A stretch of 64,000 nucleotides of DNA from Candidatus Parcubacteria bacterium (GCA_963814275.1 CAWFCE010000002.1:875263-939262), one strand, 5' to 3'. Numbered from the stretch's first letter, positions 3,001 through 37,966 are shown. Notes: a model not told the origin generated them from the sequence alone. A program made the numbers and translations.

Positions 3001-3997
3001 GGACGGCCGCTTTGAGATGGATACCGGCGAGAGCCATTACGCCCCGAGCGCAGTGAGCGAAGAGCATCTGCGGACGAACGCGGCAAATATCAGGCACCAT
3101 CTTGAAGAAGGGCAGAAGGTTATCGACCAGCATCTGAATGCCGAGGCGAAAGCGGAAGCCGAGCTTTATCAGAAGGTTATCGACCATTCGCCGGTTACCG
3201 GCAAGCCGATGCTGACGCCGGAACAGATCGAGAGGGCCGGCCTGGATATGCACCATCCGGGCGACGTCAAGATGATAGAGCGGTGGAAAGGGTTGATTGA
3301 CCATGAATTTGCCGCCAAAGCCAAATTCGGCGATAGTTACCATATGTACCAGTATACACCGCGCGATATCAGGATATTGCACGAATTGTCCGCTCACCAT
3401 GATTACGACCTTAACTCCGAACAAGTGATCGACACATACAAGAGTATGCCCGAGGGGCTCAAAGGCAGAGTGCTGTTGGGCGGTATCATGGCCGATAAAT
3501 TCGACCAGGAGCCGCTTGGCTATATGAAGGTCTGGGCCAGCGGTTATGACAAATCCGATATCGCCACAGGTATGAAAATGATGTTGAATCTCGACTACAC
3601 ACCGGCCGAGGGCGATATCACGATAGACCAACGCGATATTATTACCCTGAAGAACGCCTTCGGCTATAAGGGTATCGGCGTGATGATTTCCCGCGATAAG
3701 ATCGGTATCGACGGCCCGCTCCGCAACAACTGGAATACTTCGGATTGGGGCGGCGACCTCAAACCGGCCGGCGACCTCAACAAAGGCACGCTTGAATCGG
3801 CCGGAATACGGGTCAAAGAAATAGGTGAATATCTCAGTATCAAGCCGCATACACCGGAAACGACTGCGTCAGTCGGTGAAAAGTTGGCAACCAGTCCAAC
3901 TGGACCGCAGATCGCTCAAAAGGGGCAGACTGTGGGCGGTAGTTTTGTCGACGAAGAGCCGAAAAGGATGGGCGGACAGTTTACCGAGGAAAAATAA
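2..3997 (+). CDS. giant hypothetical membrane/surface protein, 5'-partial
   Basis: ORF 77..3997, and the same frame has no stop back to nt 2, so the gene probably starts upstream of the window. Glu/Lys-rich N region. Three Gly-rich hydrophobic segments (GGALVSAVAGGVSAG, IVGTATGAAQ, GGVITGIGSGIAG). 4x YP(N/H/Y)NAEPMEKEGV repeats. No family recognised. Confidence 0.6.
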   Translation, partial: EKLENQADIDIEELREETAQAGRDLMALGKIRKAAGDDFTKEQEKEFEDMQEKHRNLKKRLAEKTGREKKKENTEEAPESHEAEAESTEESQAGPVEGEGVDLRKMNINSEGGNIYLTINNIVNSSEVKIAQKATKALKENTEKKEESLRELREEPDTETEKEVKAVEDESENAETKIEKVKKETEIEYEELLKSWHYGWDENAETETKKPISDKKFGENDEIPLVPKGSPGGAQKSTTDKKEKTDDKIPDKSESVKNTGREKEISYLEKSIRDIEDELKVKDNPVARAHLSVQRRRLEELQGKITQEPKAKKGIDVLPETKKTARETLMNKGLYIDAEDIKFDLEYKFDEKTGELVIYLEDNKNLKDIDDLLKDSHLEQETKEALLMKVTESMNNALDAEATNEYSKFFKHHKTVLLGGALVSAVAGGVSAGARMLGGGLAMQAGKVAGGTILGGFSGAVSGKVREWLNPTIKRMQEKNSRKLKKIRQKIAKKFLTEDNLKIAFAQVVREQALEKIREGVKKTEKGQDIKNNIRDYIDANQSMFGDVDNGERDKLAGMLAHIVSIEDENSRLLAGEIDKRLGRDKDGKPRSQVKRGTVMGSIVGTATGAAQAFLDNPYMPTIASGAIGGVMIGNTYDQGWKKWDRRRYGEQMAAQVEEIAGKEKKEQEDINMLKSYLESGILDEHPTSRENAKNILIGEFLRNTTEANEAGVKEINDKWKEKYRHKKWKRIVAYSGGVITGIGSGIAGRFVFENFKGYFGFKSDSGKSGSNTVGKIDQDKMDQMNAMWPKDERYGQGHMPEGKQATMDASMNRHHETGPKYPNNAEPMEKEGVAGQGKTVTPEYPHNAEPMEKEGVASQHEARAQGYPYNAEPMEKEGVAGQGKTVTPEYPHNAEPMEKEGVVSDEAVRPEAKPIEIKIEGKVNTYSEAAYEAVKKADAGTQDNYIRRWLGEGTKVNDDNRAELVRQATRKLSIANIKMGDGNDVKNLVYKGNVGRLYPDGRFEMDTGESHYAPSAVSEEHLRTNAANIRHHLEEGQKVIDQHLNAEAKAEAELYQKVIDHSPVTGKPMLTPEQIERAGLDMHHPGDVKMIERWKGLIDHEFAAKAKFGDSYHMYQYTPRDIRILHELSAHHDYDLNSEQVIDTYKSMPEGLKGRVLLGGIMADKFDQEPLGYMKVWASGYDKSDIATGMKMMLNLDYTPAEGDITIDQRDIITLKNAFGYKGIGVMISRDKIGIDGPLRNNWNTSDWGGDLKPAGDLNKGTLESAGIRVKEIGEYLSIKPHTPETTASVGEKLATSPTGPQIAQKGQTVGGSFVDEEPKRMGGQFTEEK
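2480..2697 (+). repeat. 138-bp in-frame tandem duplication inside the giant ORF
   Basis: An 80-nt stretch at 2480-2559 is identical to 2618-2697 (period 138 nt = 46 codons). It encodes EPMEKEGVAGQGKTVTPEYPHNAEPME twice. Confidence 0.85.
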
Positions 3998-4034
3998 AAC
4001 CCGGAGAAAGACCTGATGTCCTTTCCGGGTTTTG
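3997..4034. terminator. bidirectional hairpin between convergent genes
   Basis: aaaacccggagaaag / ctttccgggtttt stem with A-run 5' and T-run 3'. It lies between the + gene stop (3997) and the - gene stop (4059). Confidence 0.6.
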
Positions 4035-24707: not shown

Positions 24708-26000
24708 ATGATGAAGCTTATCCAGCTAAAACTCAAATGGTTTGCCAAATTGATCCTGGCCAGGTACAAGCCGGAGATTATCGGAATTACCGGCAGTGTC
24801 GGCAAAACCGGCACTAAGGAAGCGGTGTATGCTGTCTTAAAAGACAAATACAAAGTGCGGCGGAGCGTCAAAAATTACAATAATGAATTGGGTTTGCCTC
24901 TGACTATTATCGATGCCGAGGCGCAAGGCCGGAATATGTTCGGTTGGGCCGGAGTTTTTTTGAAAGCGGCTTATGTCCTGTTTTCCAACAGAAAATTTCC
25001 CAAGATATTGATACTGGAAATGGGCGTGGACAAACCGGGTGACATGGATTATTTGACCGATATCGCCAGACCGGAAATAGCCGTGATGACCATGGTCGGC
25101 ACGGTACATGCGGAGTCTTTTCCCAATCGCGATTCGATCAGGAAAGAAAAGGCCAAGCTGCTTCAGGCGGTTCCGGAGGACGGCTGGGCGATAGTGAACT
25201 ACGATAATGAACCATGCCGCCTGAGCGTGAAAGGACTCAAAGCGAAAGTGATCACTTACGGATTGGACGAGGGGGCGATGCTCCGGGCGGATAAGATCGA
25301 TTATAATTTTCTTTCCGCCAAAACTGCGGATGATTTGAGAGGGCTTCGTTTTCGTCTGCATTTCCGCGGCCAGGAACAAACAGTCGCCTTGCCCCGGGTC
25401 CTGGGAACAGCCGCGGTATATTCCGCGCTGGCCGCGGCTGCGGTCGGTATTGCCAAGGGCATCACACTTCAGGATATTGCCCTGTCACTCGAAGCCTATA
25501 GTCCGCCCAAAGGCCGTATGTGCCTGATATCCGGAGTCAAAAAAACCACCTTGATCGATGATGCCTATAATGCCGAGCCGGAGTCGACCAGAATGGCGCT
25601 GGGGGTATTAAGGCAAATTCCCGTCGCCCCGGAAGCGAAGAAGTACGCGGTGCTGGGCGATATGCTCGAATTGGGTGAATATTCGGCCGGGTTGCACCGG
25701 GATATCGGCAAATACGCCGTCAAATGCGGTATCGATTACCTTGTTCTGGTCGGTGAACGGAGCCTGGATATCGCCCACGGCGCCCGTGAGGCCGGTATGG
25801 CGGAGGACAGGATATATCATTTTCCTTTTTCGCCCGAGGCCGGCCGTTTTCTGCAGGAGAGGATCAGGGAGGACGATCTACTCCTCATAAAGGGCTCACA
25901 GGGAATGCGGATGGAAAAGATCGTGAAAGAGCTTATGGCCGATCCGCTGCGCGCGGAAGAATTATTGGTGCGTCAAGACAGGCAATGGACGGGGAAATAG
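24708..26000 (+). CDS. murF: UDP-MurNAc-tripeptide--D-Ala-D-Ala ligase (MurF), lacking the usual N-terminal domain
   Basis: The P-loop ITGSVGKTGTKE is already at aa 27-38. Also DDAYNAEPESTRMAL and VLGDMLELG, which are MurF-type motifs. Confidence 0.8.
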   Translation: MMKLIQLKLKWFAKLILARYKPEIIGITGSVGKTGTKEAVYAVLKDKYKVRRSVKNYNNELGLPLTIIDAEAQGRNMFGWAGVFLKAAYVLFSNRKFPKILILEMGVDKPGDMDYLTDIARPEIAVMTMVGTVHAESFPNRDSIRKEKAKLLQAVPEDGWAIVNYDNEPCRLSVKGLKAKVITYGLDEGAMLRADKIDYNFLSAKTADDLRGLRFRLHFRGQEQTVALPRVLGTAAVYSALAAAAVGIAKGITLQDIALSLEAYSPPKGRMCLISGVKKTTLIDDAYNAEPESTRMALGVLRQIPVAPEAKKYAVLGDMLELGEYSAGLHRDIGKYAVKCGIDYLVLVGERSLDIAHGAREAGMAEDRIYHFPFSPEAGRFLQERIREDDLLLIKGSQGMRMEKIVKELMADPLRAEELLVRQDRQWTGK

Positions 26001-26071
26001 CCTTTTACACATAGCCCGTATCCCGTAACACATAGCAGCCATTGACCCAGTGACTTAATAAATTTGAAACA

Positions 26072-26099
26072 TTGACAAATCGCTATTTTCTGCTAATAT
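26072..26099 (+). promoter_or_regulatory. sigma70-like promoter of the cysK leader
   Basis: TTGACA (26072-77) - 16 nt - TAATAT (26094-99). The predicted TSS is about 26106, only 2-3 nt before the leader ATG. Confidence 0.55.
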
Positions 26100-26108
26100 A
26101 AAATCATT

Positions 26109-26159
26109 ATGAGTATAGTAGTAAAAAATGAAGTTTGTTGTGCCTGCTCCCTCGGATAA
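26109..26159 (+). CDS. candidate 16-codon Cys-rich leader peptide (MSIVVKNEVCCACSLG)
   Basis: ATG 26109, TAA 26157-59. Cys codons at positions 10, 11 and 13. Lies between the promoter and an intrinsic terminator upstream of cysK. No SD, consistent with a near-leaderless start. Confidence 0.45.
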   Translation: MSIVVKNEVCCACSLG

Positions 26160-26197
26160 CCGGGAGTCGGTTTTTGCCTGAATTTTTTTCGACTTAC

Positions 26198-26220
26198 GCT
26201 CCCGGCACGGGAGCCTTTTT
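26198..26220 (+). terminator. intrinsic terminator inside the cysK 5' leader (attenuator)
   Basis: gctcccg-gca-cgggagc 7-bp stem followed by CTTTTTAATTTT. Located downstream of the promoter and 117 nt upstream of the cysK ATG. Confidence 0.7.
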
Positions 26221-26336
26221 AATTTTCAATTTTAGATTTTCGGTTTGAATTATTGAGATATTAATATTTTTTTTCAAGAATGAAGTTCGAATGTCCGGTA
26301 TTTATTCGGTACATTCGTGGATTCGGATTATATTTT

Positions 26337-27233
26337 ATGATCTATCGAAATATCATCCAAACCATCGGCGATACGCCGTTGGTCAGGATAAACAAATTAA
26401 ATCCCAAACCGGGGCAAGTGGAGATCTATGCCAAGCTGGAAGGAAGCAATCCGGGCGGCAGCGTCAAGGACCGGATCGCCCTTAAGATGGTCGAGCAGGC
26501 GGTAGCGGAAGGCAAACTGACCAAGGACAAAACGATCATTGAGGCCACATCGGGCAATACCGGCATCGCCCTGGCGATGATCGGGGCGATCAAGGAATAC
26601 CGGGTGGAAATAGTGATGAGTGACGCGGTATCGGTCGAACGGCGTAAGATGATCGCCGCTTATGGCGCCAAAGTCACGCTGACCCCCGGCAAAGACGGGA
26701 CGGACGGGGCAATTCTCCATGTTCGGGAATTGCTTAAAAAATTTCCTGAAAAATATTTCAATCCGAACCAATTTTCCAACGAATACAACAAGATCGCCCA
26801 TTACGAGACAACGGCCCAGGAAATTTGGAAACAAACCAATGGGGAACTTGATTATTTCGTGGCCGCGATCGGCACTTCCGGCACCCTGATGGGAGTCGGC
26901 ACATTCCTGAAGCGCTACAAACCGGGGGTGAAGGTAGTATCGGCCGAACCCGTTGCCGGCCACTATATCCAGGGGCTTAAGTCCATGGATGAGGCGATCG
27001 TTCCGGAAATATATGACCGCAAACAGCTTGATGACATTATCAAGATCGAAACGGCAGAAGCCTGGGTCATGGCCCGGCGGATTATCCGCGAAGAGGGCAT
27101 TTTCGTCGGCATGTCGAGCGGCGCGGCCATGCTGGCCGCCACAAAAATAGCGGATAAGATAGACTCAGGAAAGATCGTGACGATCTTTCCGGACCGGGGA
27201 GAGAAGTATCTAAGCACGAAATTATTCGAGTGA
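26337..27233 (+). CDS. cysK: cysteine synthase A (O-acetylserine sulfhydrylase)
   Basis: TIGDTPLVRINKL, the PLP-lysine motif GGSVKDRIAL, TSGNTGIALA and GTSGTLMG. ATG 26337 is preferred over the track start 26280, which adds an atypical 19-aa extension. Confidence 0.9.
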   Translation: MIYRNIIQTIGDTPLVRINKLNPKPGQVEIYAKLEGSNPGGSVKDRIALKMVEQAVAEGKLTKDKTIIEATSGNTGIALAMIGAIKEYRVEIVMSDAVSVERRKMIAAYGAKVTLTPGKDGTDGAILHVRELLKKFPEKYFNPNQFSNEYNKIAHYETTAQEIWKQTNGELDYFVAAIGTSGTLMGVGTFLKRYKPGVKVVSAEPVAGHYIQGLKSMDEAIVPEIYDRKQLDDIIKIETAEAWVMARRIIREEGIFVGMSSGAAMLAATKIADKIDSGKIVTIFPDRGEKYLSTKLFE

Positions 27234-27475
27234 TCAATTTAATTTTGGATCAGCGCTTATTGCTTCAAAATTAGCCCAGTAACAAAGATTACCGGGCTTT
27301 ATTTATTAATTATAAATATAAATTATAATAAAAAATATACTTATATTAGTTAAAGATATATTAAGATATTTGACTATATAACTTTGTTGTGGTATTATAT
27401 TTTAATTAAAAATTTTGTTTATTCAAATAACAGGACAAACAAGCAAACATAAACAATCAACATTGGGAGGGAAAA

Positions 27476-28099
27476 ATGAAAACAGCCAAAAAAGTTGTCG
27501 ATTTTCCGGTTAAATTCGAGACGGGCGGAGAAAATTCAAAAAAGTCCAGCGACGAAGCTCTACAAATTTATGGGTTGTTGGCCGCTCTACACAGTATGCT
27601 CCAGGAACTAATGGCGGACTCGTCCAACGGATCGAATGCCACTTTATTGATGAGAAAATTTGAGGAAAAGTCCGGCGGGATACCCAAGAAGCTAGAGCCA
27701 ATCGTTGTTAGCATCCTGTCATTGTTCAAAGCTAATTGCCAGGTAGCGGAAAGTGCCTTAGTTGAAAAAAACGAGAGGGATTCTTTGCGTAATGAAAACA
27801 ACAATCTGAAAGACTGCCTTGTTGCCCAAGGCAGTAATTTGCAAAAACAGGGCAGGGAAAACGCCTCATTGAGACACAAATTAAAAAGGAACCAGGAAAA
27901 AATCAATGATCTTAGAATCGATTTCGTGTCCGCTATAATGCTGGCCTCTAATATGGCCGCAAAAAATAACGTTCCCCCGTGCCCCAAAAGAGAAATCGAC
28001 AGCAATGGGATCAATTGGTTATTTAGCGATTACTGGAAGGTAGCCTTTTTTAATAAATTCGATGGTTTCAAACGCGGTCGAGAAATAGAGGGATTTTAG
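27476..28099 (+). CDS. hypothetical coiled-coil protein
   Basis: GGGAGGG RBS. AT-richer than its neighbours. No family recognised. Confidence 0.6.
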   Translation: MKTAKKVVDFPVKFETGGENSKKSSDEALQIYGLLAALHSMLQELMADSSNGSNATLLMRKFEEKSGGIPKKLEPIVVSILSLFKANCQVAESALVEKNERDSLRNENNNLKDCLVAQGSNLQKQGRENASLRHKLKRNQEKINDLRIDFVSAIMLASNMAAKNNVPPCPKREIDSNGINWLFSDYWKVAFFNKFDGFKRGREIEGF

Positions 28100-37356: not shown

Positions 37357-37884
37357 CGGGGTAAGCGGATAGCTGATCGATTATCGCTTGCGATAATCGG
37401 TAGGAAAGTCCGGACTCCCGCCAATGCCGCTTACGCGGACTTGGCGTCGCGGCAGTGGGTAACGCCCACCCAGGGCAACCTGAGGGAAAGTGCCACAGAG
37501 ACTATACTATTTCCCGTAGCCCATAACCCGTAACACATAGCACGGTCACGGCCAGAAGAAGCTTTTGGCAATTAGTTATTCGTGAAGTCTATTATTGGCT
37601 ATGATATGTCATCGATCCGGAGTTATGTGTTTCAAGTTATGGGCTACGAGAAAGAAAGGTGAAAAGTCGGTTGATGCTTTTTGTTCTCGAGATAAAAGGC
37701 TACAACCTTCGCCTCCCGGTGACGGGATGTGCGCGGTAAACCCTGCCTGGAGCAAGAACAAATTCATTGCTTCGCAATGAAGAAAAGTAGTTCGCAAGAG
37801 CCCGGTGGCGACATCGGGCCCAGATAAATAGCTATCCATTCGGCCTCGCCGAAGGACAGAATCCGGCTTACAGCTTACCCCGGA
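37357..37884 (+). ncRNA. rnpB: RNase P RNA, bacterial type A, with greatly enlarged P12
   Basis: P1 cggggtaagc (37357-66) pairs with gcttaccccg (37873-82). Universal blocks GGAAAGTCCGGACTC, GTGGGTAACGCCCACC, AGTGCCACAGAGA, GGTAAACCCTGCCTGGAGCAAG and ACAGAATCCGGCTTACAG appear in canonical order. About 528 nt. Confidence 0.85.
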
Positions 37885-37966
37885 ATGAATAGAATTTAAT
37901 GTATATTAATGGTTTATTACTTTTGGTCAGAAGTTAATTTGAATATTATTTTTCCCGCCGAATTGT

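Follow-up and report, generated by a model that had tools for sequence, protein, structure and literature searches.

How is the expression of cysteine synthase controlled in a bacterium of the Candidate Phyla Radiation (CPR, or Patescibacteria)? The question is raised by a 64,000-nucleotide stretch of a Candidatus Parcubacteria bacterium genome (GCA_963814275.1, CAWFCE010000002.1:875263-939262; hereafter the window), in which the cysteine synthase gene cysK is preceded by a promoter, a mini open reading frame (ORF) with clustered cysteine codons and an intrinsic terminator. In other phyla, cysteine genes are regulated by T-boxes, S-box elements or CymR/CysB. To our knowledge, very little of the gene regulation of CPR bacteria has been elucidated; these organisms do not grow in isolation, and the usual assumption is that they scavenge their amino acids. 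An initial annotation of the window put the element forward as a leader-peptide transcription attenuator. Here, its anatomy, conservation, enrichment, alternative pairings, conserved geometry and energetics were analysed computationally, and together they make it highly probable that cysK is controlled by ribosome-mediated (leader-peptide) transcription attenuation, with charged tRNA-Cys as the signal sensed.

The cysK leader

The leader begins with a sigma-70-type promoter, P1 (26072..26099), composed of TTGACA (26072-77), a 16-nt spacer and TAATAT (26094-99); like every leader feature described below, it lies on the + strand. In a promoter scan P1 scored 10/12, with a TG directly upstream of the -10 hexamer (TG-extended), and it is the best promoter match within 5 kb on that strand, positioned upstream of the terminator. 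Nine nucleotides separate the -10 hexamer from the ATG (26109) of a 16-codon mini-ORF, which encodes MSIVVKNEVCCACSLG and ends with TAA at 26157-59 (26109..26159 including the stop). No Shine-Dalgarno-like sequence is found upstream of this ATG in the window, and the mini-ORF is predicted to be near-leaderless, with a 5' untranslated region (UTR) of about 0-3 nt. The putative sensor codons TGT TGT GCC TGC (26136..26147) specify Cys10, Cys11, Ala12 and Cys13, placing three cysteines within four codons (TGT TGT at 26136-41, TGC at 26145-47).

Four segments surround and follow the end of the mini-ORF. Segment 1, CTCCCTCGG (26147-55), is made up of the final leader codons, and its sequence agrees with the initial annotation, whose coordinate for it (26047-55) was a typing error; in extended form its pairing arm is GCTCCCTCGG (26146-55), with segment 2 as partner. 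Segment 2 is CCGGGAG (26160-66; CCGGGAGT, 26160..26167), starts immediately after the stop codon and can pair with either segment 1 or segment 3. Segment 3, CTCCCGG (26199-205; GCTCCCGG, 26198..26205), serves as 5' arm in the terminator and as 3' arm in the antiterminator, while segment 4, CGGGAG(C) (26208-14), is the 3' arm of the terminator. The terminator itself, GCTCCCG-GCA-CGGGAGC followed by CTTTTTAATTTT (26198..26226), was detected by a terminator scan and has a 7-bp stem, a 3-nt loop, a segment 3:segment 4 energy of -11.5 kcal/mol and a U-tract at 26215-26. The promoter, mini-ORF, segments 2 to 4 and terminator were thus all located where the initial annotation had placed them. Its claim that the 2:3 and 3:4 pairings are mutually exclusive 7-bp helices also stands, as a repeat finder returned each as a perfect 7-nt inverted repeat; the 2:3 helix reaches 8 bp when a G-U pair is counted.

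The free leader folds, at its minimum free energy (MFE), into the 1:2 hairpin plus the 3:4 terminator (-34.5 kcal/mol, z = -2.2). The 1:2 hairpin (26142..26171) had been proposed to sequester segment 2, and its presence in the MFE fold and its duplex energy relative to shuffled sequence (p = 0.007) bear this out; it would serve as an anti-antiterminator and possibly also as a pause hairpin. Directly downstream lies UUUU(U)G (26171-76), and the terminator scan scored this hairpin as terminator-like. By analogy with trp, it could be a pause site that synchronises ribosome and polymerase, or it could act as an early terminator for untranslated transcripts. Five defining features of the attenuator class are present, namely an ORF with cysteine codons, a terminator, an exclusive antiterminator, a 1:2 helix that takes in the last codons of the ORF, and a cysteine gene downstream; of the features open to computation, equilibrium switching is the one that this copy does not show. 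Since segment 2 starts right after the stop codon, a ribosome at the stop would cover segment 2, while one at the last Cys codon would cover segment 1 and free segment 2.

The control of cysteine genes in other phyla offers precedent for a riboregulator that binds a ligand, a tRNA or a protein (a T-box, a riboswitch or the target of an RNA-binding protein), in which case the ORF would be incidental. A cmscan search of 25950-26400 against Rfam found no T-box (RF00230) or riboswitch even at E<=10 and gave only four chance-level matches to unrelated families, in keeping with the initial report of no visible T-box. The leader is only ~110 nt long, and nothing in it is conserved apart from the alternative helices and the Cys codons that share a frame with an ATG, which makes such a riboregulator most unlikely.

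Recurrence in relatives

The window was compared with 173 loci around CysK relatives, comprising 136 distinct regions upstream of cysK. A Cys-run mini-ORF was defined as an ATG ORF of 8-45 codons in which some stretch of 5 residues holds 3 Cys or more. The window (128 kb, both strands) has just three of them, and Cys makes up 1.3% of residues in its long ORFs; the window locus alone is only moderately significant, and it is recurrence upstream of cysK in relatives that makes the case. Cys-run mini-ORFs were found in 22/136 distinct upstream regions where 1.1 were expected from the remainder of the same loci (Poisson P = 4e-21), and in 18 of the 43 loci whose CysK is at least 70% identical. When runs of all 20 amino acids were compared, Cys was the sole strongly enriched residue (19.7-fold); the others mostly ranged from 0 to 3.2-fold, with the exception of Asp (7.1-fold, 4 hits, P = 3e-3).

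The layout that recurs upstream of cysK in CPR bacteria is a promoter, an ATG, a mini-ORF with a CC or CCC run and then a terminator. Genome and metagenome scans gave a best CysK identity of 78%, and a protein search added a syntenic locus at 82% (L161). The leaders grouped as Family A include L161 (MKTLFQNLACSCCCLWCRRV), L173 (MENIIIAKFNCCNCS), L003 (MKIIYIRKSSCCCALG), L006 (MNKRQITNIICCCTLG), L164 (MKKQSNYNMECCCTPG) and L170 (MFKKYIEIRNCCCALWCTRE), all six with window-like mini-ORF ends (..CCCxLG*, ..CCNCS* and similar), and L070 and L082 as further members. Family B peptides (MNKQINQI..SCCCACCSSCKKEVNLLGP..) are longer, at 28-38 amino acids, and have a KKEVNLLGP-like stretch in common. Neither Family B nor the other leader types (L009, L014/L088, L087 and L151) can be aligned in sequence with Family A, but all follow the same logic. 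Although the groups are unrelated in sequence, nearly every leader in them has a promoter, a near-leaderless ORF with a Cys run, an antiterminator and a terminator. The ATG lies 6-12 nt after the end of the -10 hexamer in 16/19 bacterial-type leaders (6-7 nt in most relatives), none of the 19 leaders has an SD-like (Shine-Dalgarno-like) sequence before the mini-ORF, and of 21 leaders inspected for a U-run behind the hairpin, 18 have one. In the window leader, L173, L003, L006, L164 and L082, the last Cys codon is 1-3 codons before the stop and segment 2 starts 0-4 nt after it.

A Cys-rich mini-ORF might instead encode a functional micropeptide, metal- or redox-binding or a precursor, with the hairpin as an ordinary or partial terminator. 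Cys-rich small proteins do exist, and the length and common stretch of the Family B peptides would suit this explanation. However, beyond the Cys run neither the sequence (the N-terminal part included) nor the length of the peptides is conserved (15-38 amino acids), the conserved C-terminal codons are the RNA segments that pair with the terminator arm, and a stand-alone peptide gene has no need of an antiterminator placed relative to its stop codon. The association is, moreover, specific to cysK, and a micropeptide is accordingly considered highly improbable.

The same set of leaders bears on whether control is translational, as it is in mycobacteria. In that case the stalled ribosome would melt a structure masking the ribosome-binding site of cysK, and transcription termination would have no role. 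Such a mechanism is suggested by the leaderless-looking polyCys mini-ORF upstream of a cysteine gene, which is common to both lineages (bioRxiv 10.1101/834739), by L164, where 12 nt separate the hairpin from the start codon of cysK, and by L044, whose hairpin has no U-tract and abuts AAGGAG. In the window, however, the hairpin combines a canonical GC-rich stem with a U-tract and lies 122 nt ahead of the cysK ATG, U-runs prevail among the leaders, and no recognisable SD sequence is present at the window cysK (or at cysS) to be sequestered, so that a purely translational attenuator appears very unlikely here. In L164 the distance of 12 nt is that from the end of the U-tract to the ATG, with cysS starting 5 nt after cysK; the leader promoter must therefore be the operon promoter, and all cysK transcription has to cross the terminator. 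A cysK-cysS pair also stands behind the leader in L170 and L173.

Conserved alternative pairings

The antiterminator was assessed for each leader by comparing the duplex between the terminator 5' arm and the stretch after the Cys run with 1000 shuffles. The 2:3 duplex reached p<=0.03 in 15/18 leaders (p = 0.014 in the window), with a combined Fisher P of 1e-21; the 1:2 duplex was likewise supported overall (Fisher P = 3e-7). In a MAFFT alignment of nine Family A leaders, 88.9% of cells in the 2:3 helix were paired, falling to 32-57% when the partner was slid, and RNAalifold, unprompted, returned 2:3 as the sole consensus helix. At one position of the 2:3 helix, 4 leaders have an A-U pair and 3 have G-C. 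Leaders with a terminator and antiterminator also keep the mini-ORF and its Cys run; the contrary outcome named in the initial annotation, a hairpin kept after loss of the mini-ORF or its Cys codons, was absent among them. Cys-run enrichment, conservation of 2:3 and the RNAalifold consensus thus lend comparative support to the attenuator originally proposed.

A covariance model of Family A recovered its own leaders, together with L087 (E = 2e-4) and, weakly, L151; one false match was a plain terminator, and no further copies beyond cysK leaders were found in the 1.05 Mb scanned.

Folding of ribosome-masked leaders

The ribosome was represented by masking a footprint that reached 15 nt upstream and 12 nt downstream of the first base of the A-site codon. 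Of the 18 leaders folded in this way, 12 gave a terminator probability, P(terminator), of ~0 with the ribosome stalled at the first Cys codons and of 0.63-0.99 with the ribosome at the stop. The free, untranslated window leader gave a P(terminator) of 0.98. When segment 4 was made unavailable, the MFE structure of the window leader became the 8-bp 2:3 helix (-17.1 kcal/mol), so the alternative fold expected from the initial annotation does form; one correction to that account is that in the window the terminator is slightly more stable than the antiterminator, so the switch must be kinetic. With a ribosome stalled at Cys13, the terminator state (-18.2 kcal/mol) lies 1.1 kcal/mol below the antiterminator, and the barrier to refolding from antiterminator to terminator is estimated at ~14 kcal/mol. 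Segment 3 is transcribed before segment 4, and the antiterminator would consequently form first. Near-isoenergetic states separated by such a barrier suit a kinetic switch, in which the barrier would hold the antiterminator in place while polymerase crosses the U-tract.

Evidence to be weighed

Several results weigh against attenuation at this locus. In equilibrium masked folding the window leader does not switch at all, P(terminator) being ~0.97 in every masked state, and L007 and L011 behave likewise. Stalling at the Cys codons was originally taken to cover segment 1; this is true of codon 13, the last Cys and the only position at which segment 1 is fully covered, but a stall at Cys10 leaves an inner CUCGG/CCGGG 1:2 hairpin and favours the terminator by 5.8 kcal/mol. 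The alignment check proposed at the outset found the Cys run conserved, but Family A covariation is not significant against shuffles (63/500), with a single A-U/G-C pair alternating. Furthermore, the transcription start is a prediction, and the 9 nt from the -10 hexamer to the ATG imply a 5' UTR of ~3 nt; all of the support is computational and concerns an uncultivated organism, in which mRNAs with 5' UTRs this short would have to be translated, as we infer for CPR bacteria. The close relatives L001, L002, L004, L005 and L010 have no Cys leader, so the leader is dispensable. Finally, the region 26244-26317 contains a weaker promoter-like site downstream of the leader terminator (TTGAGA-17-AAGAAT, 26253-81, + strand, 9/12) and a palindrome 20 nt upstream of the cysK ATG (CGAATGT-N16-ACATTCG, 26288-26317), which may be a second promoter with its operator and allow cysK expression independent of the attenuator.

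The covariation result applies to 1:2 and 3:4 taken together as well as to 2:3, and is attributable to the segments being largely conserved in sequence within Family A. Both the MAFFT and the covariance-model alignments misalign the 3:4 helix between leaders (61% paired), and the per-leader duplex tests were relied on in place of alignment covariation. Retention of the same topology across groups of unrelated sequence is a stronger argument than covariation.

Some of these results would also fit a non-functional locus, in which the hairpin ends the murF operon, cysK is transcribed from the downstream promoter-like site and the Cys ORF is a relic or a product of chance. According to the terminator scan there is no terminator between the murF stop (26000) and P1, the first one downstream of murF being that of the leader; the 9/12 site at 26253-81 is available, the window terminator wins at equilibrium and the leader is missing in some relatives. 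Against this, P1 is the strongest promoter match nearby and stands upstream of the terminator, all parts of the element are intact with a geometry identical to that of L003, L006, L164 and L173, and the enrichment excludes chance. A non-functional locus is therefore judged quite improbable, and a functional cysteine-sensing attenuator is preferred.

Proposed mechanism

From the anatomy and its conservation we infer where transcription begins, that the mini-ORF is translated, that ribosomes stall on it when cysteine runs short, and that polymerase either terminates or reads through in the cell. Transcription would start from P1, a few bases upstream of the ATG, and the leader peptide would be made from a leaderless or near-leaderless start. 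With ample Cys-tRNA, the ribosome would reach the stop codon (26157-59) with its footprint over segment 2, and after its release the 1:2 hairpin would re-form; either way, segments 3 and 4 would pair and RNA polymerase would terminate at the U-tract (26215-26). When Cys-tRNA is scarce, the ribosome would stall within Cys codons 10-13, codon 13 being the most effective position, covering segment 1 and leaving segment 2 free to pair with segment 3 as soon as it is transcribed. The kinetically trapped antiterminator would then block the terminator and allow read-through into cysK. Untranslated transcripts, including read-through from murF, would default to 1:2 plus 3:4 and terminate.

Gene context

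The gene downstream of the leader (26337..27233, + strand) encodes a pyridoxal phosphate-dependent cysteine synthase of the cysK/cysM family, with a match to NCBIfam TIGR01136 at 374.9 bits, above the cutoff, and to Pfam PALP. The nearest CysK sequences are from Candidatus Falkowbacteria and other Patescibacteria. The annotated public CysK (317 amino acids) begins at ATG 26280, and its relatives begin MIY..., corresponding to 26337 and a 298-amino-acid form; the annotated start is thus probably about 19 codons too early. The gene order is PBP2/FtsI, MurF, leader, cysK, a 207-amino-acid ORF, CysS and DusB, while in relatives cysS lies directly downstream of cysK. The intervening ORF (27476-28099, + strand) matched no family in searches of the window proteins; it has its own promoter-like site (27370-27475), and its GGGAGGG is a strong Shine-Dalgarno sequence of a kind that the leader ORF, cysK and cysS all lack. 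Between it and cysK is a terminator-like hairpin (CCCAGTAA..TTACCGGG + CTTTATTTATT, 27275-27310, + strand).

The surroundings of the promoter-like site at 26253-81 are 74% identical to the P1 region over 27 nt. Repeats of ATTCGG between the terminator and cysK were considered as a candidate feature and dropped, as 63 were observed against 68 expected, with no enrichment. Elsewhere in the window, the only Rfam match at gathering level is a bacterial RNase P class A RNA (37357-37886, + strand, 194.7 bits), which spans 530 nt against a model of 367 positions and so implies ~160 nt of inserted sequence.

Variants among relatives

Among the relatives without a Cys leader, L005 (murF-cysK) has no Cys mini-ORF at about 1430-1720, where four direct repeats of AATCCGCG are followed by a terminator. 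In L004 the promoter is TTGACT-17-TAAAAT and the cysK ATG is 6 nt after the -10 hexamer, so that cysK itself is leaderless-looking; the regions upstream of cysK in L004, L171 and L172 are grouped with L005 as side cases. L161 has clpP inserted between murF and the leader and a cysS split into three ORF calls, through frameshifts or assembly errors. It also contains short intergenic tandem repeats (GGATCG, GATATGCGATGTGC and TTTCAACC), and its leader terminator is followed by a perfect palindrome of 15 bp; the L161 positions noted for these peculiarities are 2551-2580, 2718-2750, 3845-3876 and 3940-3985.

Poly-Cys mini-ORFs are also found upstream of cysK on archaeal-labelled contigs, in L044 at 3473-3594 (same as L142) and in L031 at 3846-4000 (MPKKKAKRTAKRKKASSCCCCE and MQQYNRNQKKYVIFLVKAGCCC). 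Neither leader has a U-tract terminator, and the archaeal label of L031 and L044 is not settled by the neighbouring genes.

Significance

If a conserved attenuator does sense cysteine in these cells, their cysteine synthase really supplies cysteine for translation, and both coupled transcription-translation and efficient translation of leaderless mRNAs are implied in CPR bacteria. The mechanism is a textbook one, yet it offers a rare testable handle on CPR regulation, coupling and leaderless translation, and the element, at ~150 nt, is compact enough to be tested in a heterologous or cell-free system.

Leaderless poly-Cys mini-ORFs combined with intrinsic terminators could make up a widespread class, so far not described, that regulates cysK or cysK-cysS in cis across the Patescibacteria, a tentative proposal given slightly less than an even chance of being correct. 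The class may span Parcubacteria/Paceibacterota, Moranbacteria and Falkowbacteria-like lineages, with four or five forms, if not more, that are unrelated in sequence, which would mean that it arose repeatedly or has diverged beyond recognition. Were it this widespread, transcription-translation coupling, efficient leaderless initiation and autonomous cysteine homeostasis would be features of uncultivated bacteria with reduced genomes, and DPANN-type archaea would share the principle if L031 and L044 are rightly labelled as archaeal.

Relation to known attenuators

Leader-peptide attenuation is classical, with trpL, hisL, leuL, thrL, pheL and ilv leaders in Proteobacteria and Actinobacteria. 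The cysK leader resembles attenuators of the trpL/hisL/leuL type in its short ORF with clustered cognate codons, its 1:2/2:3/3:4 topology, the proposed choice of fold by ribosome position and the intrinsic terminator ahead of a biosynthetic gene. It differs from them in that the amino acid sensed would be cysteine, the host belongs to the CPR, sequence homology is absent, and the ORF has no SD sequence, with an ATG 6-12 nt after the -10 hexamer and a start predicted to be leaderless.

For cysteine itself, the initial annotation held that such attenuators are at most rarely described; rare they are, but the principle is not unprecedented, having been demonstrated in mycobacteria and predicted in Actinobacteria and Rhodobacterales. 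Full-text searches of the literature found no description of such an element in CPR/Patescibacteria. Canestrari et al. (2020) reported that leaderless polycysteine small ORFs attenuate cysteine operons in mycobacteria (bioRxiv 10.1101/834739; Mol Microbiol 114:93), and the characterised case, Ms5788A, is translational and unmasks a downstream ribosome-binding site (bioRxiv 10.1101/834739). Common to these small ORFs and the cysK leader are a leaderless-looking mini-ORF (the leaderless start being predicted here), at least 2 consecutive Cys codons, a cysteine-metabolism gene downstream and relief of repression by stalling at Cys codons, as proposed here. Unlike Ms5788A, the cysK leader has a terminator hairpin with a U-tract well upstream of the gene (122 nt), is found in another phylum and is unrelated in sequence.

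Seliverstov et al. (2005) predicted leader peptides with Cys runs for cys/cbs operons of Mycobacterium, Propionibacterium acnes and Bifidobacterium longum (PMC1262725). These also have a run of Cys codons near the mini-ORF stop upstream of cysteine genes, but no recognisable terminator hairpins, and a Rho-dependent mechanism was proposed, whereas the leader described here has a full terminator and antiterminator. Brewer et al. (2021) predicted an attenuator, uORFC-8-2, upstream of cysS in Rhodobacterales, with tandem Cys codons and an intrinsic terminator (PMC8632094). Tandem Cys codons in an upstream ORF, two stems and a terminal U-run are features of both elements, each of which is a prediction. 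According to its description, uORFC-8-2 has its Cys codons in the first stem, at positions 14-15 of the upstream ORF, which sets it apart from the window leader, where the Cys codons are just upstream of and overlap segment 1; uORFC-8-2 is, moreover, alphaproteobacterial, appears to belong to another sequence family and precedes cysS, while the present element precedes cysK in a CPR bacterium.

The cysK leader therefore adds a terminator-based cysteine case to the few cysteine-responsive leader peptides, of which only the mycobacterial translational type has been shown experimentally. It would work like a classical attenuator equipped with a leaderless polyCys sensor, and belongs neither to the mycobacterial translational class nor with uORFC-8-2. 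What is new is the lineage and the target gene, cysK, together with an ORF start that is predicted to be leaderless.

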